DNA from: Betaproteobacteria bacterium
GTDB taxonomy: Bacteria; Pseudomonadota; Gammaproteobacteria; Burkholderiales; JACQAP01
Direction of reading: 5' to 3'
Assembly (NCBI GenBank): GCA_016194905.1
Contig: JACQAP010000009.1
Location: forward strand, 77,569 to 141,568
Length of the DNA stretch: 64,000 nt
Made by a program: the position numbers and the translations under genes. The notes under the pieces were generated by a model. That model saw only the letters and a program-made list of their open reading frames with translations, ran no database searches and had not been told where the DNA came from. This document shows positions 7,177 through 23,783 of the stretch, piece after piece (position 1 is the first letter of the stretch; the number at the start of each line of letters is the position of its first letter).

Positions 7177-7374
7177 CTACACCGGGAGCCGTACTTTCCC
7201 TTTCTTAGTTATCCGAACGGGTGCCTTGCCGCCGGCCACGATTGCCCACAGTTCCGCCGCGCTGGTAAACGGGCGGCGGACGCCGGATTCGACGACCTCC
7301 ACCACCCCGTTCACCCGCGTGCCTTTTTTTGCGGGACCGAGCACCCGAACGACGAAGCTTCGCAATTCGCGCAC
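7177..7374 (-). CDS. Small conserved protein, family S (paralog of 16270..16458)
   Basis: 65 aa (GTG start, uncertain). SFVVRV...GVVEVVESGVRRPFTSAAELWAIVAGG...KKGKV aligns with STFIVRL...GVVEDVRSGRRIPFASAEELWRAVSGG...AKGKV of the second copy. Confidence 0.7.
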   Translation of the reverse strand: MRELRSFVVRVLGPAKKGTRVNGVVEVVESGVRRPFTSAAELWAIVAGGKAPVRITKKGKVRLPV

Positions 7375-7405
7375 GGGAAGGCCTCGTGGAACGGATGAAC
7401 TGGGA

Positions 7406-7888
7406 CTAACGCAATTTCCAGCTTCCCCATTCGCGAGTACACACCGCGATCTGACCCGCGGGCGGCGGCGCGTCGGTGACGGGCATCCAGTTGCTGGCGA
7501 CCGCGATGCCGTTGTACTTGCCGGTACCGCCGACAGCGCGAAAGCTACCGCTCTCCTGATTTTTGCGGTTGAACAGGCCGAATATCTTGTCGCCCGCCGG
7601 ATCCGTGTATTCGCAGGACCCCATCTCGTTGTACTCGCCGTTGACCAGAGTCCAGGTACCGTTGCATACGGATGTCGTGTTGTGAAAGAGCCCGCTTGCG
7701 ACGGGACTTACGCCATTGACGGTGTAGGACCCACCCATGGCATCTTTTGAATGCATGATCATGTGGTGCGCTCCCACGAAGCATTCGTTCTGATCGTACT
7801 TGCCTTCCTTCGCCAGATCGGCGCCGACGGCGCTTGCGCCGATGATGCAAAGCGATACTCCAATAAGCGATGCTAGTTTGCGGTTCAT
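7406..7888 (-). CDS. Secreted 4-Cys protein with GTGK[YF]xG motif, family D (paralog D1)
   Basis: ATG at 7888 is preceded by AGGAGAGGG. It has a signal peptide (LIGVSLCIIGASAVGA). ADLAKEGKYD..CF, C.G.W, G.CE.TDP.GDK.FG and GGTGKYNG are shared with 15764..16258. Confidence 0.8.
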   Translation of the reverse strand: MNRKLASLIGVSLCIIGASAVGADLAKEGKYDQNECFVGAHHMIMHSKDAMGGSYTVNGVSPVASGLFHNTTSVCNGTWTLVNGEYNEMGSCEYTDPAGDKIFGLFNRKNQESGSFRAVGGTGKYNGIAVASNWMPVTDAPPPAGQIAVCTREWGSWKLR

Positions 7889-8022
7889 GATTTCCCTCTC
7901 CTGTTTCATTGACGGTTGAACGATCGCAGCCGGGGCTTTCCTCCGGCGCCCATGGCGGAAACCGGGGGCTTTCCGAAATACCCTTCTGTTCTCGGCCGCT
8001 GGAGAGGTTGCGGCGATACAGG

Positions 8023-8059
8023 GTACGGATAAGTTACCGAATCGAGATCCGGTTACGGT
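8023..8059 (-). promoter_or_regulatory. Candidate SARP-type direct repeats between regulator R1 and its cargo
   Basis: GTACGGAT (8023), GTTACCGA (8033) and GTTACGGT (8052). The first two are 11 bp apart. They lie 22-58 bp after the R1 stop and about 135-165 bp upstream of the D1 start. Confidence 0.4.
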
Positions 8060-8080
8060 CTTGCAATCTGCCCGCCGCCG

Positions 8081-11000
8081 CTACACCTGCTGCACGGAGC
8101 GGAACAGGGCCTCGCTTTCGCGGGAGGGAGTAATGCCAAGCGTTACGGAGAGAATCTGGCGCAGGCGACGGTATACGGTCATGGCATCGGCATGGCGGCC
8201 GCGCTCGATGTGGCAGCGTATGAGGCCCTGGTAGAATTCCTCGGCCAGATCATCGGCGTCAATCCCGCGTTGGTACAACGAGGCCGCGGCGTCCAAGTCT
8301 CCCGCTCGTTCGAGCCTAACCCCTTCTCGTTCCGCATGACGGATGAACTTGCCACGCAGCCGCTCACGAGGGGACAACGCCCAGGACGACTCGCGCTCCT
8401 CGGGCAGAAACTGTCCTTGATAGAGCCTCTCGATCCGACTGGAGTCCACTCCCGCATCGGCGGCCTGCTCGAACGCGTTCGCGTCGATCCAGACCTCGTG
8501 GGGATTCACGCTGACCCGACCATTCTCCACCTGCACCGTATTCGGATTGCGGAGCAGCTTGCGCAAGCGATGCAGCGCAATCTTGCAGGCTTCCCGAGCA
8601 GCAGCACCTTCCTCGTCCGGCCAAAGCGCGTCCATGAGCTTCGTTTCCGGAACATCCACTCCTCCGAAGGCTATGATGGCCTTAAGGAGGGTAATCGGTT
8701 TTCTGGGTACCTTGTGAGAAAAGGACAGCACCTTGTCCTCCAAAAGAATCTTGAAGTGGCCAAGCGTGTAAATTCGGACCCGCCAAGGCCATTGGTCTGC
8801 TTGATTGGAGGGCGCCGGCAGCGAAAGGCGGCGTATCAGCACATTGACGTAGCCTGGCTCGAGCCCCAACTCCAGAGCCTCCGCACACAATCTTGGCGCC
8901 CACAATCTTATGAATCGCAAGGGCCAGTCACAGCCGGAGATGCGCTGCAACTCGAAGCCGCGCCGCAAATGTTCAGGCACAGATGTGCGATTGCCTTCTT
9001 CGAGTCCCAGGAATGCTTCGGAAAAATGAACCTCAGCCTTGAGCCAAAGCGAGCGTGACGTGTCAGCAAGATTCCTTGCCTCCGATATCCAGCGTCGCGC
9101 GTCGGCAAAGTCTCGCAGCACCGTCAAGCTCAATGCGAGCTGAATACGCGACACGCAACGCAGGAAATGCGTACCCGCCTCGTCGAAACTATTCACCGCG
9201 CGCTTGGCCGACACATATGCCCCCGCCGGGTCACCGTCGAACGCGGCAACCCACGCTTTGATCGATTCCGCGATGGCCTCGTTGTAAGGACGGCCTGACA
9301 TCTCCGTTTCATTGAGACGATTCGACCAGCGACGTGCGGCCTCTGCATTTCCCACACCGAACTCGACATGAGCGCCAACAATCGCCGCAAAGCGCGATAC
9401 TGCTGGCAGGCCGTCGTCCCGGCCGATGCGCTCGGCTTCCGAGACCGCCGCACGGCTTTTCTTTTCGTCGCCCGCCACCAGTTCGAAGAGGGAAATCATG
9501 AACCAACCCAAACCTGCACTCATTGGCGTGACTTCTGGATGTCCGAGGAGCTGCTCGAGCAAAGGCGCCGCTTTGCGTGCGATTTCGAGTGGTCCTGTGC
9601 GGGTGCCGTAGGCAACGAGGTACGCCGCCGCCAAGGTTCGCAGGTTGATGCTGCCGCCGATTTGTACCAGATCGAAGACTCGATCGGTGCAGGCATCCAG
9701 TGCGGGATCATCGGGTTTGCAGTACGACAACGCAATGAGGAGGGCAGAACGTGCGCGCAGTTCCGCTTCGGCATTCTCGAAGACCGTCACTTGTTCCAAT
9801 AGCACCTTCAGCGCCCCGATCCACTGATCCATCGCACGGAAATTGGTGTATTCGAATATGTAGGTCTGAATCACTCCCGCTGCGGCCTGGACTTGACACA
9901 TGAAGTCGGCCTGACGAGTCGCCGCTTCATGGCTCGCCTCCAGCGCTACCCTCGCCCCCCTAGCATCGACCGGCGTCTTCGCAGTGCCATACCAATGCAG
10001 CAACCAGCAATGGTTCTCGACCACTTCCTTCGGAAGAGCATCAATCCATTCCACGACGACCCGCCAGCGACCTTGCGCGATAAGTCTCGAGGCCTGGCGA
10101 AGAATGACCGCGATCGCGGCGGGTACATCGCCGCAGCGAAGGTAAAGCGGAAACGCCTCCTCGGAGTGGTCGTTCGCGTCGAGGATCTGCGCTGACCGTC
10201 GGGTAATGTCGGCATCCTGGTCTGGACTGAATGTCAGTTGTGCCCGATGCTGGAGGAATGCCTGAAAGAGTGCATGAAACTGATATACGCGCTGTTCGGT
10301 TGAACGCCGATCCGTGAACAGATGACGCCGGTGCAGATCTTCCAGTAGTAGCGAAGCCGTCGTGGTCCCGGTGAGATCCTCCGCCGTTCTTGCAGTCATT
10401 CCTGGCAGATAACTGAGGCGCAAAAGCTCGTCCTGACTTTGCGGGTGCATCTGATCGAAAAGCTGGCCGGCAAAATAGTTGAACACTTCGCGCAGAGAAT
10501 CAGACACGGTAGTACTTGGGAGATCGCCGCCGCGACGCCATCGCGCAAGCAGCAGAACGAGTCCGGCTGTCCAGCCCCCGCTTTTCTCATGAAGTTCGGC
10601 GATCTGAGAGTCGCTAAGCTGGATCCGCCCGGCACCGACAGCGCGTGCCTCCTCAAAGGTGAGCTTCAGATCCTCCCAATCGACAAACGCGACGTTCTCG
10701 TTGGCAATTAGCCGCGCGTAGCAGTCCGGCGGATCGCGCCGACTGACGGCGATCAGCATGATGCCCGGCGACACCTCTTCCACCGCTTGCGCGATCAGTT
10801 GGTGGAACTTCTGCTCCGGCCCAACTTCCTGATAGTTGTCCAGAACCACTGCCGCACCTTCCGGCAGCCGGCCAAACAATTCGCGGAAAAACCTGCGTGA
10901 GAACCCCTCGGCGTCCTGAAGATATTCGGGTGTGAGCAACGGCAGTGGCCGCTGCCCTTTGCGGCCAAAAGGTTTCGCCGCTTCCCCGAGGTAGTAGAAG

Positions 11001-11236
11001 AAGGTGGGGAGGTCTGCATCGCCGGGATCGACCTGGTACCAAATGCCCTTGATAACACGAGCATCGAGCCAACTGGCTACCAGCGTGGTCTTGCCTGCTC
11101 CTGGCGGGCCGACCACGCAGATCGCGGATTTATGCTCGCGGGCTTCGTTGAGCAGCACAAACAACCGCTCGCGCGCCACTGCCTTGTAAAGGCGCGGACG
11201 AGTCAGTTTGGCAAGCTGTGGTGGCTTCTTCGGCAT
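8081..11236 (-). CDS. MalT-type STAND P-loop ATPase with C-terminal SARP module (winged helix + BTAD), paralog R1
   Basis: 1051 aa. MalT-like N-terminus (LAKLTRPRLY...VVGPPGAGKTTL, Walker-B-like VVLDNYQEV) and a long helical middle. C-terminus is WPWRVRIYTLGHFKILLEDKVL...LWPDEEG...HRLRKLL (OmpR-type wHTH) plus DDLAEEFYQGLIRCH...YRRLRQILSVTLGITPSRESEALF (BTAD). Confidence 0.85.
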   Translation of the reverse strand: MPKKPPQLAKLTRPRLYKAVARERLFVLLNEAREHKSAICVVGPPGAGKTTLVASWLDARVIKGIWYQVDPGDADLPTFFYYLGEAAKPFGRKGQRPLPLLTPEYLQDAEGFSRRFFRELFGRLPEGAAVVLDNYQEVGPEQKFHQLIAQAVEEVSPGIMLIAVSRRDPPDCYARLIANENVAFVDWEDLKLTFEEARAVGAGRIQLSDSQIAELHEKSGGWTAGLVLLLARWRRGGDLPSTTVSDSLREVFNYFAGQLFDQMHPQSQDELLRLSYLPGMTARTAEDLTGTTTASLLLEDLHRRHLFTDRRSTEQRVYQFHALFQAFLQHRAQLTFSPDQDADITRRSAQILDANDHSEEAFPLYLRCGDVPAAIAVILRQASRLIAQGRWRVVVEWIDALPKEVVENHCWLLHWYGTAKTPVDARGARVALEASHEAATRQADFMCQVQAAAGVIQTYIFEYTNFRAMDQWIGALKVLLEQVTVFENAEAELRARSALLIALSYCKPDDPALDACTDRVFDLVQIGGSINLRTLAAAYLVAYGTRTGPLEIARKAAPLLEQLLGHPEVTPMSAGLGWFMISLFELVAGDEKKSRAAVSEAERIGRDDGLPAVSRFAAIVGAHVEFGVGNAEAARRWSNRLNETEMSGRPYNEAIAESIKAWVAAFDGDPAGAYVSAKRAVNSFDEAGTHFLRCVSRIQLALSLTVLRDFADARRWISEARNLADTSRSLWLKAEVHFSEAFLGLEEGNRTSVPEHLRRGFELQRISGCDWPLRFIRLWAPRLCAEALELGLEPGYVNVLIRRLSLPAPSNQADQWPWRVRIYTLGHFKILLEDKVLSFSHKVPRKPITLLKAIIAFGGVDVPETKLMDALWPDEEGAAAREACKIALHRLRKLLRNPNTVQVENGRVSVNPHEVWIDANAFEQAADAGVDSSRIERLYQGQFLPEERESSWALSPRERLRGKFIRHAEREGVRLERAGDLDAAASLYQRGIDADDLAEEFYQGLIRCHIERGRHADAMTVYRRLRQILSVTLGITPSRESEALFRSVQQV

Positions 11237-11309
11237 CCCTTGCTCCCGAAGCGAGATGACGATGCCATTCTATGCCCGTAAATCAGATCCAGCCGCATGA
11301 TCGCTTCGG

Positions 11310-11549
11310 GTGGGTACAATGGTGCGAACAACCGAGGCAGAGTCCATGATCCGAAACGTTGAGCGATGGCAAAAGTGGGAAGCAGCGCAGATGCGGGGGG
11401 CCGTGGATTTTCCGCGTAACCAGCGAATGTTCGAGGCCCTGTACCGGCACGCCCGGCGGCTCAATCCCACAGCCCTGTTGCGGTTCCCCGAAGACCTGGA
11501 ATTCAAGATCCGCCTGGCCGGGGCGCTGAATGTTCGAGCGCCTGCTTGA
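11310..11549 (+). CDS. Small hypothetical protein, partner of the downstream nucleotidyltransferase
   Basis: 79-aa ORF whose 3' end overlaps the next gene start by 20 nt. It is divergent from R1. No motif recognised. Confidence 0.5.
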   Translation: MGTMVRTTEAESMIRNVERWQKWEAAQMRGAVDFPRNQRMFEALYRHARRLNPTALLRFPEDLEFKIRLAGALNVRAPA

Positions 11550-12078
11550 ACGTCTCGCCGGCAGTCTCGACCGGCACAAGATTCCCTATATGGTCATCGG
11601 CGGGCAGGCCGTCCTGGTTTACGGCGAGCCGCGCCTGACCAGGGACATTGACGTGACTGTTGGCGTGGATGCGAATCGGACCGACGCAATGCTGGTAGTG
11701 GCGCGAGAACTGGGGCTGAACGTCCGCGTCGAGCACCCCGCTGAATTCGTCCGGGATACGATGGTTCTTCCGTGCGAGGATGTGACTACGGGCATTCCGA
11801 TTGATTTTATTTTCTCGCGCTCGCCCTACGAGGTGGAAGCGCTGGCACGAGTGCGACGCGTGACTGTCGGAAGAGGTCAAGTCGCGTTTGCGAGCCTCGA
11901 AGACCTGATCATCCACAAACTCATTGCCGGCCGGCCGCGGGACATGGAAGACGTCCGGACCATCCTCCTGAAGAACCGGATATACGATCGAGCCTATGTG
12001 GCGAAATGGCTTGTCGAGTTCGACAAACTTCTGGATCGCCCTCTTGCACGGCAGCTAAAGGAACTCGACCCCGGTTGA
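11530..12078 (+). CDS. Minimal nucleotidyltransferase-fold protein (Pol-beta superfamily)
   Basis: 182 aa. IGGQAVLVYGEPRLTRDIDV fits the G[GS]-x(9-13)-D-x-D nucleotidyltransferase signature. Confidence 0.7.
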   Translation: MFERLLERLAGSLDRHKIPYMVIGGQAVLVYGEPRLTRDIDVTVGVDANRTDAMLVVARELGLNVRVEHPAEFVRDTMVLPCEDVTTGIPIDFIFSRSPYEVEALARVRRVTVGRGQVAFASLEDLIIHKLIAGRPRDMEDVRTILLKNRIYDRAYVAKWLVEFDKLLDRPLARQLKELDPG

Positions 12079-12105
12079 CGGCTCCGTTGAAGTGACGAAG
12101 TTGTT

Positions 12106-12262
12106 CTTACCGTTCACTGTTCACCTTTCGCCATTTATGGTCGAATACCCGTGCGAATACCCTACGTGCGTAGCACGTCGGAGTACTCTTCTAGTACCCT
12201 TTTAGACCGGTTATGGTCGCAGACCGGTATCCCCTTGTGGGAATCCCCTTGCGGGGCACCGC
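12106..12262. repeat. Intergenic element E3 (word arm + conserved core shared with E4 and E1)
   Basis: 12107-12131 carries ttaccgttcactgttcacc words. 12132-12163 is identical to 13519-13550 (32 nt). It is followed by a hairpin, GGAGTAC..CCTTTTAG and TTATGGTCGnAGACCGGTATCCCC, as in E4. Confidence 0.85.
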
Positions 12263-12264
12263 CC

Positions 12265-13503
12265 TTACGGCCGTTCCATCTTGCAGGTCGTGGGCAGGAT
12301 GTTGTCCTTCGCTTCTATGCGGACATCGGATTTCCACCCATATCCAGTATCGTCGGCGTCGTACTTCACATCAGCGGTGCCGGCTTTGACGAAACTCGAA
12401 ACATAGAGCGGCATGATCACCTGGTGATCATCGCCTCGCATCCACACCTCTCCCACGCCGCCGTCGTAGCGCAGGTCTTCCAGTGCCTTTGCGATTTGGA
12501 TCGGATCCGCGGAGCCGGCCTTGTCGATCGCGCGGGCGAGCATCTCGACGAAGTACTTGTAAGGCATGAATCCCCAGTCCTCCCTGAAGCGCTTCTTGTA
12601 GTCCAGGGAGTAGCGTTCCAGGGGGTGGCCTGCAATGTTCGCGTTCCAGGCTGCCACCGTCTTGACGCGGTTGGCGCCGGCAGCGCCAAAGGCGCGCGGT
12701 GTACCGACAAGAAAGCCGTAGTTGGTATAGAAGGTCGCTTTCAGCCCGGAGTCTTCGGCTGATTTGATCAGCAGCGCAAGGTCGCTGCCCCAGTTGCCGG
12801 TCAGCACCGTATCCGCTCCGCTCGATTTTATCTTGGCGACATAGGGCGCGAAATCCTTGACTTTGCCCAGCGGAATCAGCTCGTCTCCCACGATCTCGAT
12901 GTCGGGACGTTTCTTTGCGAGCATTTCCCTCGCCACCCGCTTGAAGGAATGTCCGTAGGCATAGTCGGGGTTGATCATGTAGAGCTTCTTCGCGGTCTTC
13001 TGCGTGGACAGGACGCCCGTCAAAGCGTCGATTTTCATGTCCAGGTTGGCCTCGAAGCGGAAGTGCCAGAAATTGCATTTCTCTTCGGTGAGCACGGTAT
13101 CGGTCGCGCCATTGTTCAGGTACAGGATCTCGCGCCCGGGATTGCGCTGGTTGTACTTGAGTACCGCGTCGGTCATGGCGTGCGCGACATGCGAACCGAC
13201 GCCCTGGGTAATCAGGCGGATGTTCTGATCGATCGCCTGCTTGAGGACCACCAGACTTTCCTGGGGGCTGGACTTGTTGTCGAGCAGCACCAGTTCCAGT
13301 TTGGTTCCACCCAGAACACCGCCGCGCGCGTTGATATCATCCACCGCCATCTGGATGTGACGGCTTCCCATCTCCCCCTGAAGCGCCGCCGGGCCGCTGA
13401 ACGGATCGATCACCGCTATCCTGATGTTCTCGGCGGCTGCCATCGACATGCCGCCTAACACCGAGGCCAGCACGAACGCTGCCCTGCAGAATATCCGGAT
13501 CAT
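12265..13503 (-). CDS. LivK/LivJ-type (branched-chain amino acid family) periplasmic substrate-binding protein, orphan copy 1
   Basis: ATG at 13503 is preceded by GAAGGG. It has a signal peptide and IRIAVIDPFSGPAALQGEMGSRHIQMAVDDINARGGVLGGTKLELVLLDNKSSPQES, typical of Peripla_BP_6 proteins. It is a paralog of the next gene. Confidence 0.85.
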   Translation of the reverse strand: MIRIFCRAAFVLASVLGGMSMAAAENIRIAVIDPFSGPAALQGEMGSRHIQMAVDDINARGGVLGGTKLELVLLDNKSSPQESLVVLKQAIDQNIRLITQGVGSHVAHAMTDAVLKYNQRNPGREILYLNNGATDTVLTEEKCNFWHFRFEANLDMKIDALTGVLSTQKTAKKLYMINPDYAYGHSFKRVAREMLAKKRPDIEIVGDELIPLGKVKDFAPYVAKIKSSGADTVLTGNWGSDLALLIKSAEDSGLKATFYTNYGFLVGTPRAFGAAGANRVKTVAAWNANIAGHPLERYSLDYKKRFREDWGFMPYKYFVEMLARAIDKAGSADPIQIAKALEDLRYDGGVGEVWMRGDDHQVIMPLYVSSFVKAGTADVKYDADDTGYGWKSDVRIEAKDNILPTTCKMERP

Positions 13504-13518
13504 GCTTGTCCCTTCACG

Positions 13519-13690
13519 CATTTATGGTCGAATACCCGTGCGAATACCCTGGCGAAGCCCGGAGTACCCTTTTAGCTAGGAGTTATGGTCGAAGACCGGT
13601 ATCCCCTGGGAATCCTTCGGAATCCCTTGGGAACCCTGTGGGCGCATTTCACACCTTTACCGTTCGCTGTTTACCGTTCACCATTCGCCG
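13519..13690. repeat. Intergenic element E4 (conserved core + word arm)
   Basis: 13519-13550 is identical to 12132-12163. GGAGTACCCTTTTAG is at 13561-13575. ttaccgttcgctgtttaccgttcaccattcgcc words are at 13655-13688. Confidence 0.85.
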
Positions 13691-13693
13691 CCG

Positions 13694-14935
13694 TCACGGC
13701 CTTTCCATCTTGCATGTCGTCGGCAGAATATTGTCTTTCGCTTCTATGCGCGTATCGACGTGCCAGCCAAAGCCGGTTTCGTCCGCATCGTACTTCACGC
13801 CCTGCTTGCCGACCTTGGCGAAGGTCGCCACGAACAGCGGCTCCATGATCTGGTGATCATCCGCGCGCATCCACGCTTCGCCGACGCCGGCGTCGTAGCG
13901 CATGTCTTCCAGCGCCTTGGCGACCTTGACCGGATCGGCCGAGCCTGCCTTGTCGATCGCTTTCGTCCACATGTCGATCGTGTACTTGATCGGCAGGAAT
14001 CCCCAGTCTTCACCGTATTTCTTTCTGTACTCCAGATAATCCTTTTCCAGCGGATTGCCCGGCAGATTCGGATACCAGCTCGCGACGGTCTTCACGCGTT
14101 CGGCGCCCGCAGGACCGAAAGACTTCGGTGTGCCGACAAGGTAGGCGTAGTTGGTATAAAAATTCGCCGGCAGTCCGGCTTCCTCCGCGGACTTGATCAG
14201 AAGCGCAAGGTCGCTGCCCCAGTTACCCGACAGCACGGTATCGGCGCCGCTCGCCTTGATCTTGGCGATGTAAGGCGAGAAGTCCTTCACCTTGCCGGTC
14301 GGATGCAGTTCGTCGCCGACGATCTGGATGTCCGGCCGCTTCCTTGCGATCATTTCCTTGGCCACGCGGCTGACCGACTGGCCGTAGGCGTAATCCTGGT
14401 TGATCAGGTAGATCTTCCTGATGTTTCTGTCCTTCGCGATCACGCCGGTGAGGGCGTCGATCTTCATGTCCACGTTCGCGTCGAAGCGGAAATGCCAGTA
14501 ATTGCATTTCTCGTTGGTCAGCGCCGGATCGATCGCCGCGTGATTGAGGAAAAGAATCTCCTGACCGGGATTGCGCTGGTTGTACTTGAGCACGCCATCG
14601 GTCAGGGCATGGGCCACGTGCGAACCATTGCCCTGGGTGATGTAACGGATACCCTGGTCGGTAGCCTGCTTGAGGGCGATCAGACTTTCCTGCGGGCTGC
14701 TCTTGTTGTCCAGAGTGACTAACTCGAGTTTGATTCCCCCAAGTACGCCACCGCGCGAGTTGATCTCGTCGATCGCCGCCTGGATGTGCCGGTCGCCCTC
14801 CTTGCCTTGCAGCGCAAACGGCCCGCTTTGCGGGTCGATGTGGGCGATCTTGATGGTGTCGGCCGCTGCAGCGCAGCGAATTGCTGCAATGCCGAAAAGA
14901 AAAACTAGAGCCAGCCTGCCAGAAGCATGACACAT
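13694..14935 (-). CDS. LivK/LivJ-type periplasmic substrate-binding protein, orphan copy 2
   Basis: ATG at 14935 is preceded by GGGGGGAG. It has a signal peptide and is alignable end to end with copy 1; both end in DNILPTTCKMERP. Confidence 0.85.
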   Translation of the reverse strand: MCHASGRLALVFLFGIAAIRCAAAADTIKIAHIDPQSGPFALQGKEGDRHIQAAIDEINSRGGVLGGIKLELVTLDNKSSPQESLIALKQATDQGIRYITQGNGSHVAHALTDGVLKYNQRNPGQEILFLNHAAIDPALTNEKCNYWHFRFDANVDMKIDALTGVIAKDRNIRKIYLINQDYAYGQSVSRVAKEMIARKRPDIQIVGDELHPTGKVKDFSPYIAKIKASGADTVLSGNWGSDLALLIKSAEEAGLPANFYTNYAYLVGTPKSFGPAGAERVKTVASWYPNLPGNPLEKDYLEYRKKYGEDWGFLPIKYTIDMWTKAIDKAGSADPVKVAKALEDMRYDAGVGEAWMRADDHQIMEPLFVATFAKVGKQGVKYDADETGFGWHVDTRIEAKDNILPTTCKMERP

Positions 14936-15105
14936 GATCTCCCCCCGTCGATTTTTGTGTGTCCTCCAACTCGCGCCCAGTATATCCAGATGACGAGGCA
15001 GGCAAGAAGGTGGCGCATGGCACCCCGGTCCCCGATTGCCTCGCAATTCGTAATCCATCTGTAAGGAACCCGGTCATAGAGTAGCCAAGGTTGCACACCG
15101 CAATC

Positions 15106-15125
15106 CGTCGCCGCGTGCGGCGACG
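15106..15125 (+). promoter_or_regulatory. Perfect palindrome upstream of D3 (operator or stem-loop candidate)
   Basis: CGTCGCCGC-gt-GCGGCGACG lies about 40 bp upstream of the D3 ATG in the SBP2/D3 divergent region, and is preceded by AATCCGT. Confidence 0.35.
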
Positions 15126-15163
15126 CGCGCAATAAATTCCAACACCTGTGAGGAGAAGAAAAT

Positions 15164-15690: not shown

Positions 15691-15763
15691 CGACGGCGGG
15701 TTGTTTCATTATTTCCCTCCCTATGGATGAGTTTGCGCGTCTGGAACTTATTCCGGCACGCCG

Positions 15764-16258
15764 TTACTTCAACCGGTAGGTCCCGGTTGCACGATTGCAG
15801 TTCTGCAAGGTGCCTGGCCCCTGGGTCGCAAACTGACCGACCGCCGCATACGAGCCGCCACCGGTCATGCCGGAATACTTGCCGGTACCGTTCATGACCT
15901 GCCACTTCCCGCCGCTACCCGTGTTCGCATACTTGCCGAACTGCTTGTCGCCGTCGGGGTCGGTCGTCTCGCAATAGCCGTTCTCCTGATAAACGCCGTC
16001 GATCACCGCCCACACCCCGGAACAGCGGATTCCGTTCAGGTGATAAAGCCCACCGTTGGGCAGATTGCTGACCATGGGTCCGTAAAGATCCAGAACCCCG
16101 GCGATCAGCTTGTCCGAATGGGCTATGGCAGGCAAAGGCCCGCCGAAGCAAAGATTGACGTCGTACTTGCCTTCCTTGGGCAAATCGGCATAAACAGGCG
16201 AAGCGCTGATTGCGATCAAGGCGAATGCGACAACGAAAGCGGATTTTCTGCCAAGCAT
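15764..16258 (-). CDS. Secreted 4-Cys protein with GTGK[YF]xG motif, family D (paralog D2)
   Basis: ATG at 16258 is preceded by AAGGAGGAG. It has a signal peptide (FVVAFALIAISASPVYA). ADLPKEGKYD.N.CF, IRCSGVW, GYCETTDPDGDKQFG and NGTGKYSG are present. Confidence 0.8.
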   Translation of the reverse strand: MLGRKSAFVVAFALIAISASPVYADLPKEGKYDVNLCFGGPLPAIAHSDKLIAGVLDLYGPMVSNLPNGGLYHLNGIRCSGVWAVIDGVYQENGYCETTDPDGDKQFGKYANTGSGGKWQVMNGTGKYSGMTGGGSYAAVGQFATQGPGTLQNCNRATGTYRLK

Positions 16259-16269
16259 GTGACTCCTCC

Positions 16270-16458
16270 TTATTCTGATTTTGATGGTGAGACTTTCCCT
16301 TTGGCGTTCCGGGGAAAACCTCCTGACACTGCACGCCACAACTCCTCGGCACTCGCAAAAGGTATGCGACGGCCGGACCTGACGTCTTCGACCACGCCGG
16401 CGAGCGGCCGCCGCGCCTGACGATAAAGGCGAACGATGAATGTAGATCCCGGATCCAT
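16270..16458 (-). CDS. Small conserved protein, family S (paralog of 7177..7374)
   Basis: 62 aa from the ATG at 16458, which is preceded by GGGGAGGG (the track start at 16476 is TTG). Alignment is given under 7177..7374. Confidence 0.7.
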   Translation of the reverse strand: MDPGSTFIVRLYRQARRPLAGVVEDVRSGRRIPFASAEELWRAVSGGFPRNAKGKVSPSKSE

Positions 16459-16498
16459 GGTCCCTCCCCGGCGCAAAGTCAGGCTAGCCCGGCAGGGA

Positions 16499-16517
16499 TT
16501 ACGGATGGGTTACGGAT
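16499..16517 (-). promoter_or_regulatory. Candidate SARP box: two TTACGGAT direct repeats with 11-bp period
   Basis: TTACGGAT is at 16499-16506 and again at 16510-16517. They sit in the 55-73-bp gap between the R2 stop (16532) and the S2 start, 41-59 nt upstream of the S2 ATG. Confidence 0.45.
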
Positions 16518-16531
16518 TTCCGCCTTGACGG

Positions 16532-19500
16532 TCAGTTGCCCTGAATGGACTTGAACAGCCGCTCGCTTTGCGGGGAAGGTTGAATGCCGAGCGTGACGGA
16601 AAGGGTCTGACGCAGACGTCGGTATACCGCCATGGCCTCTGCGCGGCGGTCCTGCTGCATGTGGCAACGCATCAGGCCCTGGTAGAGCTCCTCGGCAAGG
16701 TCGTCGGAATCGATGCCCTTCTGGTAGAGCAGCACCGCAACCTCAAGTCGGCCTTCGCTCTCGTACTGTCGGCCGGTTCGCGATACATAGTGCAGGAACT
16801 GGCTGCGCAAGCGCTCGCGCATCGGGACGGCCCATGACGCATCGGTGTCTTCGCACAGAAAGTGGCCACGATAGAGCCGCCAGACGGGATCGATCATGTC
16901 CGGCACCTGCACAGCGTCAAGCGCGCGCTCGCGGCCGGAGATCATTCGTTCAAATGCCCGGGTGTCGACCCAGCATTTGCGCGGATCCAGCGATATCAGG
17001 CCTTCGGACAACTGCAGTACGTCGGCATGATCGAGCAGCTTGCGCAGCCGATGCAGGCTCACCGCAAGCGTTTCGTGAGCCGCATCTCCGCTCTCGTCGG
17101 GCCACAGCGCATCGATCAGCTTTTGTTCAGGCACGGCAGTGGCGCCGAAAGCTACAATTGCCTTGAGCAGAGCAAGCGTTTTCTTGGGCGCCTTGCGCGA
17201 AAACACCAACGGCTCGCCGTCGACTTCGATCCGGAATTCGCCGAGCGTATGAATTTTGACCGGCCAAGGCCAGTCCGGTACGTCGGACTCGCGCGGAGGC
17301 ACCTCGAATTTTCGAATGTATTCCCGTATGTAGGGCACCTCGATACCCGCCTGTAAAGCTTCCGCGACCATCCAGTCGAACATTGGGACGCAACCGCGCG
17401 CATAAGGCCAGGCATTGAACTCCTTTCCCATCACGATCGATTCGGCCAGTTGTTGACGTGCGCGAACGCGGTCGCCACGCAGGTTCGAGATGAATGCACG
17501 GCACTGCAGGATTGACGGTCGATAGCGCTCCATGAAGGTGCCCTCCGAAGCAATCCATGCCTCATCCAGCCATTTTTCGGCAAGCTCGATTTCGCCGACC
17601 ATAGCCGGTGCCGGTGCGCATTGAGCCCGCCACGCGACGTAGAAGAAAGGTGCGCCCAGTTTGGTCGCCGACTCCACGGCAACTTTTGCGTGATACGCGG
17701 CCCCAGAGGCATCTCCCGTGCTGATGGCTATGAAACACCTCGCGAGGTGGAATTGCGCCATGTTCATGGGCTGCCCCTGGCTGAAAGTGCCCTCCAGTCC
17801 GGCCACTGAAGCTTTTGCCGCCGAGAATTCCCGCCATGCGACCGCGTAATAAGTGCGGAAACAATGTGAAAAGAACTCCGTCTGCCTCAGTCCGTTCGCA
17901 GACGCAATCCGGTCAGAGTGCTCCAATGCCTGCACTGTCAGATCGCGATCTCCGGCCCGGTGATACTGATATCCGACAAACATCCACCACCACGCCTTGT
18001 TCAGCGGGGTAACCTCGGGACGTTCGACGAGTGGGCCGATGCGTACCACGATTGCGCGCGCCCGTGATGGCTCCATTGCAAGGGTGTGGTAAATCATGAG
18101 ACCGGTTGCCGCCGCGACAATCTGGTTCCGGTCGCCGTCCCCTTGCAAGAGCTCGGTGAGCCGAGTGACGACGCTGCCCATCAGGGGGTGCCCAGTGTGG
18201 CGATAGGTAAACGCAATCATCAACGCACCCAGCACGTGGATCTCATCTGCGGCGCTGGCAAAGGCCGGTCTTTCGGCAAGAATGGACCCGATCTCTTCCA
18301 CCCACCGGTCGAGGGGTTGGAAATTTGTGTACTCGAGGTAGTAGGTGCGGATAATCCAAGCCGCGGACACAAGTTGGCCGACACCGTCCGCGTTCGTCCT
18401 GAAGGCTTCAAAGGCTCGTTCAAACAGTCCTCGCGCATCGGGCACTCCTTCATAAACGCGGGCGCTGCCGGCCCAGTACAGCAACCAGGGGTTAAGCTGC
18501 ACCAGATCGTTCGGCAGATCGCGTATCCAGTCGCGCAACGTCTGCCATCGCCCTTGTGCGAGCAACTGGGGCGCAAGCGAATGAACCACGCCCGCTGCAT
18601 CCAGCCAAAGTTTCGCGTCTCTTAGTAGTGGAAAGGCTGCTTCCAGCGCGCCTTTATCGCGCATCATCAAGCCGGCGCACGCGAGCAGTTCGCGAATCTC
18701 TGTTTCCGAGATCGAGTCCTGCAATCGCCTGCCAAGAAAGTCCCGGAATAGATCGTGATATTGATACCGCTGTTCATTCGCGCCGCGCTTGTAAGTAAAT
18801 AGGTGCCGCCTGCACAACGAGTCGAGCAGCACTTCCGCATGGGTGTTGCCGCTGAGCGCTACGGCGGCATCGACCGAAAATGAGGAGAAGACCGAAGTCC
18901 TGAGGAGAGTGTTTTTGTCGCTCACCGATGCCGCGTCGAAGATTTGAGTCGCAAAGTAATCGAATGTGGCATCTTTCGCGAGGCTATCGATCTCGGCATC
19001 GCCGGCAAGCCGCCCGCGAAAGCGCTCCACGGTGAGCGTCAATCCCGCCGCCCATCCGTCGGACTTCTCATACAGCTTTTCCAGTACGCGAGGGTCGATG
19101 TCCCCCCGGGCCTTTGCGATCGCATGCGCCTCGTCGGGAGTAAGCCTCAGATCCTCCCATCCAATTTGAGCGACGGCCTCGCTGGCGACATGTCGCGAAA
19201 ACTCCGGCGGCGGTTCGGTGCGACTGATGCAGACAAGGTTGACATGCTCCGGCACTTCCGGGACCGCAGCGCTCAGTACCCGCGGGATCGCCCCTTGTTG
19301 TGGAACATCCTGAAAGTTATCGAAGACGAAAAAACTGTTCTCCGGCGCGCGCGCGAAGAGATCCCGGAAGTAGCGTCTGGCAAAGCCTTCGAGGTCGGGT
19401 AGGTACTCGGCAGTCAGCAGGGGGAGGGGCTGCGACTTGCGGGCGAACGACTGGGCCGATTCGGTGAGGTAATAAAAGAACGTCGACACGTCGGCATCTC

Positions 19501-19711
19501 CAAGGTCGACGTGATACCAGACGCCCGCCCGTTCGCGGGATTCCAGATAGCTCGCGATGAGCACGGTCTTGCCGGCACCGGGCGGTCCGGCAACCCAGAT
19601 CGCAGGATGCTTGCGCTTCTCGTCGAGCAGCCTGAACAGCCGCTCGCGCGGCACCGCGTCATAAAGACGCGGGCGCGAAAGCTTGGCCAGTTGCTGCGGC
19701 TTCTTCGACAC
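16532..19711 (-). CDS. MalT-type STAND P-loop ATPase with C-terminal SARP module, paralog R2
   Basis: 1059 aa. LAKLSRPRLY...VAGPPGAGKTVL, FVFDNFQDV, C-terminal WPWPVKIHTLGEFRIEVDGEPLVF...LWPDESGD...HRLRKLL and DDLAEELYQGLMRCH...YRRLRQTLSVTLGIQPSPQSERLF. Confidence 0.85.
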   Translation of the reverse strand: MSKKPQQLAKLSRPRLYDAVPRERLFRLLDEKRKHPAIWVAGPPGAGKTVLIASYLESRERAGVWYHVDLGDADVSTFFYYLTESAQSFARKSQPLPLLTAEYLPDLEGFARRYFRDLFARAPENSFFVFDNFQDVPQQGAIPRVLSAAVPEVPEHVNLVCISRTEPPPEFSRHVASEAVAQIGWEDLRLTPDEAHAIAKARGDIDPRVLEKLYEKSDGWAAGLTLTVERFRGRLAGDAEIDSLAKDATFDYFATQIFDAASVSDKNTLLRTSVFSSFSVDAAVALSGNTHAEVLLDSLCRRHLFTYKRGANEQRYQYHDLFRDFLGRRLQDSISETEIRELLACAGLMMRDKGALEAAFPLLRDAKLWLDAAGVVHSLAPQLLAQGRWQTLRDWIRDLPNDLVQLNPWLLYWAGSARVYEGVPDARGLFERAFEAFRTNADGVGQLVSAAWIIRTYYLEYTNFQPLDRWVEEIGSILAERPAFASAADEIHVLGALMIAFTYRHTGHPLMGSVVTRLTELLQGDGDRNQIVAAATGLMIYHTLAMEPSRARAIVVRIGPLVERPEVTPLNKAWWWMFVGYQYHRAGDRDLTVQALEHSDRIASANGLRQTEFFSHCFRTYYAVAWREFSAAKASVAGLEGTFSQGQPMNMAQFHLARCFIAISTGDASGAAYHAKVAVESATKLGAPFFYVAWRAQCAPAPAMVGEIELAEKWLDEAWIASEGTFMERYRPSILQCRAFISNLRGDRVRARQQLAESIVMGKEFNAWPYARGCVPMFDWMVAEALQAGIEVPYIREYIRKFEVPPRESDVPDWPWPVKIHTLGEFRIEVDGEPLVFSRKAPKKTLALLKAIVAFGATAVPEQKLIDALWPDESGDAAHETLAVSLHRLRKLLDHADVLQLSEGLISLDPRKCWVDTRAFERMISGRERALDAVQVPDMIDPVWRLYRGHFLCEDTDASWAVPMRERLRSQFLHYVSRTGRQYESEGRLEVAVLLYQKGIDSDDLAEELYQGLMRCHMQQDRRAEAMAVYRRLRQTLSVTLGIQPSPQSERLFKSIQGN

Positions 19712-19893
19712 GCCCCCTCCTGCCGAATCCGAATCGATCTGCGGCAGATGATAGCGCGGGAGATTTGTAAAACGCTATGCCTTTATCATTTCCGTGGAGC
19801 GAAATAATCCGTTTGGCGATTACCGCGGCAGCCGAAAGAGGTCGTGGACTGTTTGCACCAGCAATTCCGGTTGCTCTCCGTGAACCCGAGGCC

Positions 19894-20250
19894 CTAACGG
19901 CAGGAAGCGGCCATGACCGGCCGCCATGCCGATTGCGTATCCTCAAGATACTGCCTCTGTACCGCCAGTGCCTCCTGCTCGCGGGTCATCCATTCTGCGC
20001 AGTCGCGCGCCTCGCCGCGCCTCGCGAACTGCCGGTGATGCTCCAGCTCATGCAGCACGATCGACAACCAGCGCGGGTCCGTCCAGTTGATATCGTTCCT
20101 GATATACAGTTGACCCTTGTCATACGCCGCCTCGCAAGGGCAGGGCATGGCCTCTCTTGGCACGATCAGCACCACAGGAAACTCTTCCGGGATGGGCTCC
20201 GTCGTGAGCGTCCGCAGTACTAGCAGCAATTCGACCAGAGTGCTTTTCAT
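19894..20250 (-). CDS. HExxH-motif protein (family P, cytoplasmic paralog)
   Basis: 118 aa from the ATG at 20250 (the track start at 20280 is GTG). SIVLHELEHHRQ...REQEALAVQRQYL aligns with SVLLHELVHYVQ...REQEAYAIQKIFL of 25515..26129. Confidence 0.65.
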   Translation of the reverse strand: MKSTLVELLLVLRTLTTEPIPEEFPVVLIVPREAMPCPCEAAYDKGQLYIRNDINWTDPRWLSIVLHELEHHRQFARRGEARDCAEWMTREQEALAVQRQYLEDTQSAWRPVMAASCR

Positions 20251-20345
20251 CGGCGCAATTTTTCCTGCCTCGTCAAGCACGCCGCCGAAGTGATGTGAGA
20301 AAGGCCTCGCCGCGGCTGTTGCTGGGCTTTACTCGGGAGAGAGTC

Positions 20346-20479
20346 ATTGCCTAATTGCACCGCGCGAGGCCTGTAAACGTGCGTGTTCGTGGTCATCACT
20401 TGCCGCGCAACTATTGCGCAGGAAGGTGGCTACGCTATTGCACGCATACTTACAGATGGCTAACTAATTGCAGAATTGC
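20346..20479. promoter_or_regulatory. ATTGC-repeat region in the R3/P1 intergenic gap
   Basis: Six ATTGC copies start at 20346, 20354, 20413, 20437, 20467 and 20475. The 9-mer CTAATTGCA occurs twice (20351, 20464). The palindrome GCGCAA-cta-TTGCGC is at 20405-20419. Confidence 0.35.
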
Positions 20480-20591
20480 CGTGTGGAAACTACCAACGAG
20501 CCTTATTTCCCCGTCGGAGATTGACCGTGGCGGCCGCCACGCGAGGCCAATATGGAATCGGGGAGGTGACTTTTCGCTTACATGAACGCGA

Positions 20592-23500
20592 TCAGCGGCT
20601 GGAAAGTTTCCGGAACAGCTCCTCGGTCGCCGGAGATGGCTGGACGCCGTGGACCCGGGTAAGCAGTTCGCGCATCCGGCGATAGGCTTCGAGCGCCTCC
20701 GGCGTGCGACCCACCTGATGGTGGCAGCGCATCAGGCCCTGATGGAAGGTCTCCGCGAGTTCGTCAGCCTCAATGCCCCGAATGTATAGATCGAGCGCCT
20801 CTTCGTGGCGCCCCTCCTGCTCGAACCGGCGAGCGGCCGAACTGACTAGTTCGAGATAACGCGCGCGCAATTTGTCCCGGGTGGAGAAAGCCCAATGCGC
20901 GTCGTCATCGTCGGGGAGGAAGGATCCGCGGTAGAGTTTAATTGCCCGCATCGTCTGGGCGTGTATCGGTCCGGGTGCGCGCGTGCCTGCGCTTTCCGAT
21001 TCGAACGCCAATGAATCGACCCATACGCGACCCGGATCGAGAGAGATGCGGCCTTCACGTTCCGTGATGAGATCATTCTTCCCGAGCAATCTGCGAAGCC
21101 GATGCAATGCGGTGGTAAAGGATTGGTGCGCGGTGTCGCCGTCCTCGTCCGGCCAGAGGGCATCGGCAAGTTTCCGCTCGGTAACTTCCTTGCCGCCGAA
21201 AGATATGATGGCCTTGAGCAACGAAAGCAGTTTTTTCGGCGTCTTGGCGGCAAACACCAGCGGCTCTCCATCGAGTTCGACGGAAAATTGTCCGAGGCTG
21301 CGGATTTTCACCGGCCACGGCCAGACCTCCAGATACGGCTCAGGCGCCTCAAGGCCGAATTCTCGGATGAAGGCAAGCGCTCTTTGAACATGAATCCCGC
21401 GTTCCATGGCAGCGGCCGCCAGCATCGCGGCCCATCCCCAGCACCAGGCCAGCATGTGCCCATACTGGTCCATGCCGTGGCGTTCGTGCGCGAAAATCCT
21501 GTTCAATCTGTCGTCCAGCACCGGCAAATCGCCTTGCCTCAGTGCCATGATTGCCTCGGCCGCATCGGGCGCAAAACGTGCCCATTCCATGTTTACGCGA
21601 TCGGACGAGCGGCGATGCTCTTCGATCCATCTCCGGCCCGCGACATGATCACCCGACTCGACGGTTCCCCAGATCAGGCCGGTCAGCGCCATGAAAATAT
21701 GAGGAATCGATCCGGCTTCGACATACAGTTCGTAGGCCCGCGCGCCATGGCTCAGCGGCGACGCTGGGTCACCCGTGTACACGCCAAACCAGGACTTCAT
21801 GTTCACCAGGGACGCAACCTCATAGGGTTGCGCAGGGATCATGATCTCTTCGAAGCGCTCGATGCGGCGTCGGCCCGACTCGATGCGTCGCTGGTCCATG
21901 TCGAAGTAGAAACCGAGGATGCACGCGAAGCGCTCCGCAATATGCATCCCTTCATCGCTGGCGATCGACAGGTTTCTTGCCACGGCCTGCTCACCGAGCG
22001 AAACATCGCTGGCGTTGCAGGCATACCAGTTGATGACTGCCCAGGCGAAGATCCTCCGGAAGACGGTGACGGCAGGATCTGCGAGCAACGGCGTAAGCAG
22101 CACAGCGGCTCGTCGGCTAACCTGCAGATGTCCGGTAAAGCTTCCATACAAGGTAAGATAAGTCGCCGCCGTTACGCGAAGATTGACGTCCGCGCCGGTC
22201 CGAAGCAATTCATCGACTCGAACCACGCACTGGTCAATCCGCTTGTGGTCCGGCATCCGGTAAACAAGCGCGATCAGCATGGCCGATTGCGCGCGCAACT
22301 CCGCATTCGGCTCCATCGAGCGCATTTGCGGCTCGAACATCCTTTCCAGAACGGGAATCCAACGATCCAACGGTGTGAACACCGCGTACTCGAGAAAATA
22401 GGCTTCGACCATGCCGGCCGCCGTCTGTACCTGGCACAGCAGATCATCTTCTCTGATCGACTGTTGGCAGGCTCGTTCCAGAATTGAGCGGGCACGCGGC
22501 GGATCAACCCCGATCCACGCGGTGCCCAGCCAGTGCAGCAGCCAGCAGTTCTTCGCCACCAGTTCCTCGGGCAGTTCGCCGACCCAATCCACGACCATTC
22601 TCCAGCGCCCTTGCGAGATAAAGCGCATGGCCTCGTGCAGCACAAGCGCCTGCGCCCCAGCCCAGTCCCGCGCTTCGACATGAAGCGCCATGGCGGCTTC
22701 AACCTCTCCCACCTGCTCCAGTTGTTGTGCCGCCAGGCGGGCAATTGCGCCTTGCTGAGACGGACTCAGCTCCTGGCGCGCACGATGCCTCAGGAAGGCA
22801 CGGAACAGCGCGTGGAACTGATAGACCGGTTCTGCGCTCCGGCGCCGGTCAGTGAACAAATGACGGCGATAGAGTTGTTCAAGCAACCGGGCCGCAGAGA
22901 CATTTCCGGTCAGCGCTTCAGCCATGGATTCCGGAATGTTGGGCGGGTAACTCAACAGCAGGAGCATGCGGCGGGTTTCCGCGTCAGCGCGGTCGAACAA
23001 CTGCCCGGCGAAATAGCCGAACACTTCCTGCAGGGAATCCGGCGCGGACAGATCTTCGATGCTTGCGCCGCGCTGCAGACGCTCCGCCAGCAGGATCAGA
23101 CCTGCCGCCCAGCCGCCGGAGCGCTCATGCAATTCATCGAGCAGCCGATCATCCATTGGCGCATGTTGATGCACGATCTGCCTTGTTTCCTCGCGCGTGA
23201 GTTTCAACGGTTCCCATTCGATCAGTGCCAACGTCCGGTTCGCGCTCAGGAGGGCGAATTCTCCGTCGGGCACGACTCGGCTCACGATGACAACCGGGAT
23301 GCCGTGCGGGGCATTCTCGATCGCAATCCGGACGACTTCATGGAAGACGGCTTCGCTGCCTGCCTCTTGGAAATTGTCCAGCACCAGAACCGCCGGCGCT
23401 GACAGACGACTGAACAGCTCCCGGAAGTAACGCCGGGCAAAACCGGGAACATCGGCCAGGTGTTCGGGAGTCAGCAGGGGCAGCGGCCGCAGCTTGCGCG

Positions 23501-23783
23501 GCCGGCCGGACCGGGCACGCTCCGCGATGCCGAGGTAATAGAAGAAGCTCGCCGGGTCGGCATCCCCGGCATCGACCTGATACCAGATGCCGGACTTGCC
23601 GCGGCTTTTCAGCCAGCCCGCCACCAATGTGGTTTTGCCTGCGCCGGGGGGTGCCGCGATCCACAGGGCAGGATGCTCGCTCGCCTCGTCGAGAAGGCTG
23701 AACAAACGCTCTCTTGGCAGCGCGTCATAGAGCCGCGGCCGGCTCAGTTTTGCAAGCTGGGCTTTGCGCGAACCTACCGCCAT
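20592..23783 (-). CDS. MalT-type STAND P-loop ATPase with C-terminal SARP module, paralog R3
   Basis: 1063 aa. LAKLSRPRLY...IAAPPGAGKTTL, LVLDNFQEA, C-terminal WPWPVKIRSLGQFSVELDGEPLVF...LWPDEDGD...HRLRRLL and DELAETFHQGLMRCH...YRRMRELLTRVHGVQPSPATEELF. Confidence 0.85.
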   Translation of the reverse strand: MAVGSRKAQLAKLSRPRLYDALPRERLFSLLDEASEHPALWIAAPPGAGKTTLVAGWLKSRGKSGIWYQVDAGDADPASFFYYLGIAERARSGRPRKLRPLPLLTPEHLADVPGFARRYFRELFSRLSAPAVLVLDNFQEAGSEAVFHEVVRIAIENAPHGIPVVIVSRVVPDGEFALLSANRTLALIEWEPLKLTREETRQIVHQHAPMDDRLLDELHERSGGWAAGLILLAERLQRGASIEDLSAPDSLQEVFGYFAGQLFDRADAETRRMLLLLSYPPNIPESMAEALTGNVSAARLLEQLYRRHLFTDRRRSAEPVYQFHALFRAFLRHRARQELSPSQQGAIARLAAQQLEQVGEVEAAMALHVEARDWAGAQALVLHEAMRFISQGRWRMVVDWVGELPEELVAKNCWLLHWLGTAWIGVDPPRARSILERACQQSIREDDLLCQVQTAAGMVEAYFLEYAVFTPLDRWIPVLERMFEPQMRSMEPNAELRAQSAMLIALVYRMPDHKRIDQCVVRVDELLRTGADVNLRVTAATYLTLYGSFTGHLQVSRRAAVLLTPLLADPAVTVFRRIFAWAVINWYACNASDVSLGEQAVARNLSIASDEGMHIAERFACILGFYFDMDQRRIESGRRRIERFEEIMIPAQPYEVASLVNMKSWFGVYTGDPASPLSHGARAYELYVEAGSIPHIFMALTGLIWGTVESGDHVAGRRWIEEHRRSSDRVNMEWARFAPDAAEAIMALRQGDLPVLDDRLNRIFAHERHGMDQYGHMLAWCWGWAAMLAAAAMERGIHVQRALAFIREFGLEAPEPYLEVWPWPVKIRSLGQFSVELDGEPLVFAAKTPKKLLSLLKAIISFGGKEVTERKLADALWPDEDGDTAHQSFTTALHRLRRLLGKNDLITEREGRISLDPGRVWVDSLAFESESAGTRAPGPIHAQTMRAIKLYRGSFLPDDDDAHWAFSTRDKLRARYLELVSSAARRFEQEGRHEEALDLYIRGIEADELAETFHQGLMRCHHQVGRTPEALEAYRRMRELLTRVHGVQPSPATEELFRKLSSR

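Follow-up and report, generated by a model that had tools for sequence, protein, structure and literature searches.

Three paralogous MalT-type ATPases with a C-terminal SARP domain and predicted SARP-type boxes before neighbouring genes in a Betaproteobacteria bacterium

In a 64,000-nucleotide (nt) stretch of Betaproteobacteria bacterium DNA (contig JACQAP010000009.1; the whole stretch is called the window below), three paralogous genes, R1, R2 and R3, encode proteins that, judged from their sequences, combine a MalT-clade STAND (NOD) ATPase with a helical sensor arm, which is divergent, and with a SARP domain for DNA binding and activation at the C-terminus. Genes for small proteins of a family called S here, for members of a second family, D, and for other exported proteins follow R genes in conserved synteny, and a promoter-like element of two 11-nt direct repeats lies in the gap between them. 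R1–R3 are probably signal-sensing transcription activators that act on these predicted boxes to control the adjacent units, which comprise S and D genes and an HExxH gene, H1.

The three R genes all lie on the minus strand (R1, 11236-8081, 1051 amino acids [aa]; R2, 19711-16532, 1059 aa; R3, 23783-20592, 1063 aa). An initial annotation, made from the letters alone, had described them as paralogues alignable from end to end, and they do align over their full length, with pairwise identities of 40–44% and a mean column identity of 64%. In R1, the predicted MalT-type STAND ATPase occupies residues ~1-410, the helical sensor arm ~411-810 and the SARP part ~811-1051. Identity between the paralogues is 44–52% in the NOD and 43–52% in the SARP domain, and falls to 26–36% in the middle sensor arm. 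The Walker A motif GPPGAGKT is invariant across the three proteins. The N- and C-terminal motifs quoted in the initial annotation are likewise present, with one correction: R1 reads DKVL where G.P[LV] had been given. Residues 1 to ~400 match the NCBIfam MalT model NF003420 (positions 5–410 of 903; E 1e-39 to 1e-47), with a score under the equivalog cut-off because the match is partial, as expected, and the MalT structure 8bob in the PDB is matched over residues 9–406 (E 3e-35). Walker B is DN[FY]Q in R1, R2 and R3, aligned to DDYH of MalT, and of 115 family members, 77 have DNFQ and 23 DNYQ (100/115). The MalT-like N-terminus proposed earlier is thus confirmed by both matches, and no NB-ARC match was found in the three proteins with Pfam.

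The C-terminal part also departs from MalT. The Pfam BTAD domain PF03704 was found in all three R proteins at 57–72 bits (cut-off 22.1; E 1e-15 to 1e-20), directly after the winged helix. The SARP domain of AfsR (8hvr, residues 49–282) aligns to residues 829–1060 of R3 across both winged helix and BTAD (E 5e-11); the AfsR SARP was also matched in a profile search (E 1.6e-11), where EmbR is a weaker match. Neither Pfam nor NCBIfam gave a match in R1–R3 to a helix-turn-helix (HTH) of the GerE/LuxR type. The BTAD score, the 8hvr alignment and the lack of a LuxR match together uphold the earlier proposal that the LuxR HTH of MalT is replaced by a C-terminal winged helix and BTAD. Close relatives of R3 (P0040-P0046, ~1007 aa) terminate within BTAD; they keep the winged helix and lack the last TPR-like helices, so that Pfam calls no BTAD there.

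The association of R with its neighbours extends beyond the window. Profiles of S, D and H were built from the window and searched against all open reading frames (ORFs) of 76 fetched loci (L001-L076). In an R-centred census of 68 R genes outside the window, each followed by ≥1.5 kb of DNA, a neighbour was counted when it lay on the same strand within 1.5 kb. S was found downstream of R in 31/68 cases and D in 21/68 (both in 17/68, either in 35/68), and an HExxH gene in 2/68. Seen from the neighbours, 33 of the 44 S genes and 27 of the 48 D genes have an R at most 1.5 kb upstream; where S (8 cases) or D (10 cases) lies upstream of an R, it mostly belongs as cargo to the R before it in a tandem array. 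The order of R and S or D is kept in Lysobacter, Nitrospirota, Steroidobacteraceae and Acidiferrobacterales, and in the most distant taxa, too, S comes after R. An S-centred census, independent of R, drew on metagenome contigs retrieved with a degenerate nucleotide pattern of the S core. Where ≥350 nt of DNA upstream of S was available (24 genes), the C-terminus of an R stood 70–260 nt upstream on the same strand in about 16, and the exceptions have other neighbours. When the ORFs downstream of R were clustered, S and D were dominant, ahead of binding proteins and an exported alpha/beta-hydrolase; this clustering is noisy, with off-frame ORFs in high-GC DNA, and only the S, D, binding-protein and hydrolase clusters are credible. 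The R–S and R–D links are conserved, and the HExxH link is lineage-specific, limited to the closest syntenic loci (L006, L007, L019 and similar). The regulator/cargo module of the initial annotation accordingly stands for S and D in this census of homologue neighbourhoods, and for HExxH only among close syntenic relatives.

The gaps after R genes hold repeats that the initial annotation did not contain. Direct repeats in 11-nt phase were first seen by eye just 3' of the R2 and R1 stop codons. A predicted box is defined as two 11-nt direct repeats with the core AT..GTA, followed by a 9-nt spacer and a -10-like TAnnnT hexamer. The box before S2–D2 (ATCCGTAACCC ATCCGTAATCC; 16517-16496, minus strand) precedes, after 9 nt, the hexamer TAGCCT (16486-16481), and that before D1–S1 (TTCGGTAACTT ATCCGTACCCT; 8041-8020, minus strand) precedes CAACCT at the same distance of 9 nt (8010-8005). 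Before D3, the box is on the plus strand (ATTCGTAATCC ATCTGTAAGGA; 15046-15067; 9 nt; TAGAGT, 15077-15082), and before H1 on the minus strand (ATTAGTTAGCC ATCTGTAAGTA; 20468-20447; 9 nt; TAGCGT, 20437-20432). The 64-kb window contains exactly four core sites, all within the R cluster and each facing an S, D or H gene; none of them precedes R1–R3. L006 and L007 keep the H1 box and its spacing amid diverged flanks, and no sigma-70-type -35/-10 pair was found in the window gaps that hold boxes. SARP repeats are spaced by 11 or 22 bp, with the 3' repeat near the -10 element and overlap with the -35 position (PMC10936776). The predicted boxes follow this phasing rule, as 11-nt direct repeats near a -10-like hexamer that overlap the -35 position, and the promoter logic of SARPs appears to be kept in a Gram-negative class.

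The spacing is statistically distinct across loci. For 86 R genes, the 130 nt that follow the stop codon were scored for 8-mer direct repeats (≤1 mismatch) at spacings of 4–33; spacing 11 was found in 21/86 regions against 2.6 in shuffles, and any other spacing in at most 6 regions. The 11-nt spacing was replicated in an independent set of regions upstream of S (10/26 against 1.5). The pattern AT..GTA-N4-AT..GTA (≤1 mismatch) occurs in 26/82 R-downstream regions in the sense direction, compared with 2/82 antisense, 0/94 within R coding DNA and 0.22 in shuffled sequence. At exactly +9 from the box, [TC]AnnnT is present in 61 of 95 sites, where ~3% would be expected, and in 10 non-redundant loci the position of a TAGCCT-like hexamer is fixed. 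The gene that follows the 95 core sites is S in 23 cases, D in 17, another R in 16, H in 4 and some other gene in 32, and the remaining 3 sites fall inside tagged coding sequence (R or H). Many of the other genes come immediately 3' of an R and have exported products. Boxes are also carried by the R loci of cultured Lysobacter and Noviluteimonas, and variants of the recognition helix, extracted by alignment, track variants of the repeat. S genes without a preceding R (L078, L085, L104 and L107) keep the two-repeat box and the -10-like hexamer, for instance ATCTGTAAGCT ATCTGTAACCT-N9-TAGTAT in L107; a box at S genes that lack an adjacent R suggests control in trans. Since SARP-type boxes are conserved, the adjacent genes are probable direct targets of R, and the output of the module, which the initial annotation had listed with its signal as unknown, is no longer wholly so. 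The motif can also be used to predict regulons in otherwise opaque metagenome-assembled genomes (MAGs).

Some further box-preceded genes were noted. Among L001-L076, 16 core boxes lie before R genes themselves, mostly in tandem arrays, which hints at autoregulation or regulator cascades. A third recurrent box-preceded target, besides S and D, is an exported alpha/beta-hydrolase of the Peptidase_S15/AXE1-like type (~316-342 aa) in L008, L025, L031, L044 and L060, and in these loci the hydrolase gene directly follows the R stop codon. Most other box-preceded genes begin with signal peptides. In L078 and L085, a divergent LacI-type regulator takes the place of R.

By analogy with MalT and AfsR, a ligand on the sensor arm and ATP on the NOD would relieve autoinhibition and allow oligomerization. 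Two adjacent SARP domains would then occupy the two repeats, which overlap the -35 position, and box-bound SARP dimers would recruit RNA polymerase; the adjacent units (S2–D2, D1–S1, D3 and H1) would be switched on as a result. Divergence among R1–R3 is greatest in the sensor arms, which makes it probable that the copies respond to distinct signals while using closely related boxes. The D-N Walker B, in place of the D-D of MalT, suggests that hydrolysis would be slow or absent and that the switch would be driven by binding. In any cultured member, regulator, predicted operator and first targets would lie within a few hundred bases of one another, a compact system for studying the coupling of a MalT-type switch to SARP output.

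Several observations weigh against activation of the neighbours by R through these boxes. By the present criteria, a box is found in only about one-third of R-downstream regions, and about half of the R genes have neither S nor D downstream. The correlation between recognition helix and repeat is confounded by shared ancestry, and the four boxes in the window resemble one another, so that no R can be assigned to a particular box. At the protein level, Pfam Trans_reg_C scores 20.7 bits in R2 and 18.9 in R3, both under the cut-off of 26.2, and has no match in R1; the winged-helix call thus depends on the AfsR alignment. The sensor arm (residues 411-810 of R1–R3) gave no Pfam repeat match, TPR_MalT included. 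Finally, the box is displaced by ~3 bp from AfsR geometry, with its centre near -32 (for a transcription start assumed 7 nt after the hexamer) compared with -29.5 for the afs box.

This ~3 bp offset, together with the overlap of the box with the would-be -35 position, would also suit an R that binds as a repressor or dual regulator and occludes the -35 region, with S and D expressed when R is released. Such a mode of action is unlikely, as the promoters have no usable -35 hexamer, which is typical of activator-dependent promoters, and as BTAD is an activation domain and the characterized SARPs are activators (PMC10972967; PMC10936776). Somewhat less probable again, the boxes could belong to another winged-helix regulator of the PhoB/OmpR type, in which case R, S and D would be part of its regulon and R would act elsewhere. 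The sites of PhoB/OmpR-type response regulators also consist of two 11-bp direct repeats, which take the place of the -35 element. Pho boxes share the architecture seen here, a 7-bp repeat and a 4-bp spacer, twice, upstream of the -10 element. AfsR and PhoP, moreover, have been reported on overlapping sequences (PMC10936776). However, the invariant core of the present boxes is AT..GTA and not the Pho-box TGTCA, and the boxes are tied to R, standing directly after its stop codon in 26/82 regions against 0.22 in shuffles. Box variants also co-vary with the recognition helix of R, whereas a single global regulator would leave paralogue-specific variants unexplained.

R might instead simply be co-transcribed with S and D, the repeats being incidental or structural (a terminator, or REP-like). 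The R–S gaps are indeed short (30–260 nt) and on the same strand. This is nevertheless very improbable, because the repeats are direct and not inverted, keep a strict 11-nt phase with 26 sense against 2 antisense occurrences and precede a fixed -10-like hexamer, and because a box also stands before D3 on the opposite strand and before S genes with no adjacent R. The weakest alternative, that R1–R3 are Avs-like anti-phage STAND NTPases with the S, D and HExxH proteins as effectors or unrelated neighbours, recalls that STAND NTPases with large C-terminal sensors are often defence proteins (PMC13581612) and that an AbiEii-like nucleotidyltransferase gene lies between R1 and a binding-protein gene, SBP1, but it was rejected on the PADLOC result (13–21-bit P-loop/TPR noise for R1–R3, nothing for S, D or H) and is at odds with an output domain that is a transcription activator and not a nuclease or protease, with a nearest N-terminal relative, MalT, that is itself a regulator, and with a neighbourhood of conserved chromosomal synteny.

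As presumptive activators of their boxed neighbours, R1–R3 resemble several known regulators in part. In AfsR/afsS of Streptomyces coelicolor, as here, a STAND ATPase is fused to a SARP, and the SARP part of R aligns to that of AfsR (8hvr); a 22-bp box of two 11-bp direct repeats lies over the -35 position, as predicted for R; and the main target, again by prediction for R, is an adjacent gene for a protein of ~60–70 aa. AfsR activates this adjacent small gene, afsS (PMC10936776). No homology between S and AfsS was found, and no search aimed at it was made. The two systems differ in domain order (SARP, NB-ARC, TPR in AfsR; NOD, sensor, SARP in R), in the type of NOD (NB-ARC in AfsR, MalT-type in R) and in host, since AfsR is actinomycete and the hosts of R are Proteobacteria and Nitrospirota, with no link to antibiotic clusters. 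The R box further differs from the afs box in its core, AT..GTA, and in lying ~3 bp further upstream. With MalT, R shares the homologous N-terminal 400 residues, including an SKLSRP-type segment, Walker A and the winged-helix domain, as well as the order of ATPase, sensor arm and C-terminal DNA-binding domain. Unlike MalT, R has a winged helix and BTAD in the position of the LuxR/GerE HTH, DN[FY]Q in place of DDYH at Walker B, an arm in which no TPR_MalT match is detectable in R1–R3, and predicted sites that are direct 11-nt repeats and not MalT boxes. The SARP-LAL regulators (PimR, FilR and SanG) also combine a SARP with an ATP-binding half; theirs is of the LAL type, and they bind heptameric direct repeats. 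SARP-LALs, however, carry the SARP at the N-terminus and regulate pathways in actinobacteria (PMC10972967), whereas the order in R is the mirror image and the predicted targets are small or exported proteins.

The architecture is frequent in sequence databases. Among 8,000 candidates scored, at least 2,218 homologues of R3 were found at E ≤1e-10. Almost every full-length R homologue carries PF03704 and PF25873, and a few homologues have a precomputed PF17874. Their automatic names are 'BTAD domain-containing putative transcriptional regulator' at NCBI and 'MalT / DNA-binding SARP family transcriptional activator' at JGI. The proviso of the initial annotation, that the architecture would be real but not novel if it proved common, thus applies. 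In contigs representing one genome per species, 230 stretches with an R relative were found, in which uncultured Burkholderiales predominate. Cultured carriers include Lysobacter prati, L. dokdonensis and Noviluteimonas caseinilytica, and further carriers belong to Nitrospirota, Steroidobacteraceae, Contendobacter, Acidiferrobacterales and one Desulfobacteraceae MAG. The module is widespread in uncultured soil and water bacteria. Tandem R arrays of up to four copies occur in L014, L015 and other contigs of MAG JAIEQG01, and one Burkholderiales MAG has at least 7 loci and at least 10 R genes within the best 80 matches, a multiplication that is a large lineage-specific expansion.

In the literature, SARPs have been described as exclusive to actinomycetes (PMC7040171), and all recognized SARP classes place the SARP N-terminally (PMC10972967). 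R1–R3 depart from this definition on both counts, with a C-terminal SARP and non-actinomycete hosts. No paper on such a reversed class was found in the searchable literature, an absence that is not proof; the architecture is common and automatically annotated in databases, yet undescribed in that literature. The more than 2,000 relatives form a mirror-image STAND-SARP class, widespread in Gram-negative environmental bacteria, against the picture in reviews of actinomycete-only activators of antibiotic clusters with an N-terminal SARP.

S and D are two sizeable families of unknown function that the boxes mark as the predicted R regulon. S gave no match in Pfam, NCBIfam or PADLOC. An exhaustive profile search found 921 representative clusters of the family at E ≤1e-3, and all 150 matches listed are free-standing proteins of 50–139 aa; word-indexed homologue searches found 11 close relatives for S and 8 for D. 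The S core reads Y[IV]VR[IV]YR...G.VE.V..G...F...ELW, with a basic tail after it, and the S proteins that come after R have 60–80 aa. The predicted fold has three strands and one helix (predicted local distance difference test [pLDDT] 74), and a fold search returned no significant structural neighbour (best E 0.5). S is a cytoplasmic mini-protein, and since its position parallels that of afsS beside afsR, the leading guesses make it either a regulator acting downstream or a partner of R in feedback. A broader extension of this parallel is possible but doubtful: R–S modules would be a proteobacterial counterpart of AfsR/AfsS, with S as a new class of small regulators (relay or feedback) and the R arrays, which reach ten or more copies per genome in some Burkholderiales, as a sensory repertoire. 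If so, R arrays would control exported dirigent-like barrels, orphan binding proteins and hydrolases, and those proteins might handle environmental small molecules, for example, plant- or lignin-derived phenolics.

D proteins begin with a stretch resembling a signal peptide, contain conserved cysteines and carry the motif GGTGK[YF] close to the C-terminus, and they have no match in Pfam, NCBIfam or PADLOC. Their predicted fold is an eight-stranded antiparallel barrel (pLDDT 76), for which the top Foldseek matches are 6ooc, 4h69 and 5k21 (E 3e-4 to 2e-2; TM 0.45-0.55). This predicted barrel resembles the folds of dirigent proteins, allene oxide cyclases, the Diels-Alderases AbyU and PyrI4, and PodA. 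Unlike these, D has no family membership at the sequence level, carries a bacterial signal peptide and conserved cysteines, and has no assignable catalytic residues. D is predicted to be an exported beta-barrel of the small-molecule type. The small genes described in the initial annotation as non-enzymatic cargo are present, and the label itself is not established, since HExxH is a motif of the metallopeptidase type and the predicted D fold also occurs in enzymes.

In minus-strand reading order, the cluster comprises R3, H1, R2, S2, D2, D3 (plus strand), SBP2, SBP1, a nucleotidyltransferase gene (plus strand), R1, D1 and S1. S1 and S2 are paralogous, as are D1, D2 and D3. D1 (7888-7406, minus strand; 160 aa) encodes an exported dirigent/allene-oxide-cyclase-like eight-stranded barrel by prediction; its ATG at 7888 was set by homologues, in a listed ORF that begins at 7909. 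The small S-family gene S1 (7374-7177, minus strand) follows after a gap of 31 nt and is probably co-transcribed with D1. S2 (16458-16270, minus strand; ATG 16458 set by homologues) encodes an S-family protein of 62 aa, with three predicted strands, one helix and a basic tail, and a ribosome-binding site directly 3' of its stop codon precedes D2 (16258-15764, minus strand), another exported barrel of the D family. The third D paralogue, D3 (15164-15631), lies on the plus strand and was absent from the initial annotation.

SBP1 (13521-12265, minus strand) and SBP2 (15058-13694, minus strand; start probably near 14935) encode Peripla_BP_6 periplasmic binding proteins in tandem, distantly LivJ/UrtA-like. 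No gene for an ATP-binding cassette (ABC) permease or ATPase lies nearby, in agreement with their earlier description as orphan binding proteins between the R genes. Similar orphan binding proteins come directly after R in L048 and L053, and the repeat in L048 differs (ATTTGACAGCA ATTGGACAGCG). A DUF6036/AbiEii-like nucleotidyltransferase gene (11530-12078, plus strand) stands by itself between R1 and the genes for the binding proteins. Immediately upstream of it, a small ORF (11310-11549) has no family match, and a toxin–antitoxin pairing of the two is unconfirmed.

H1 (20280-19894, minus strand) encodes a 128-aa HExxH protein with the motif LHELEHH, found only in the closest syntenic loci. 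Between its predicted promoter and its start, a leader segment of ~75–90 nt at ~20300-20372 (minus strand) is more conserved than the flanks in L006 and L007. No Rfam match was found for this leader, or anywhere in 7000-24200, and no covariation was seen among the three sequences at hand. The ends of the leader are complementary (GGCCTCGCGCGG ... CCGCGGCGAGGCC), and its substitutions are not coding-like. A second HExxH paralogue, H2 (26333-25515, minus strand), which the initial annotation did not list, is longer, with the motif LLHELVHYVQD and a signal-peptide-like N-terminus, and adjoins a gene for a Sel1-repeat protein (26126-26992, minus strand). The order H2 ... R3–H1–R2–S–D recurs in L002, L006, L007, L019, L029 and L036.

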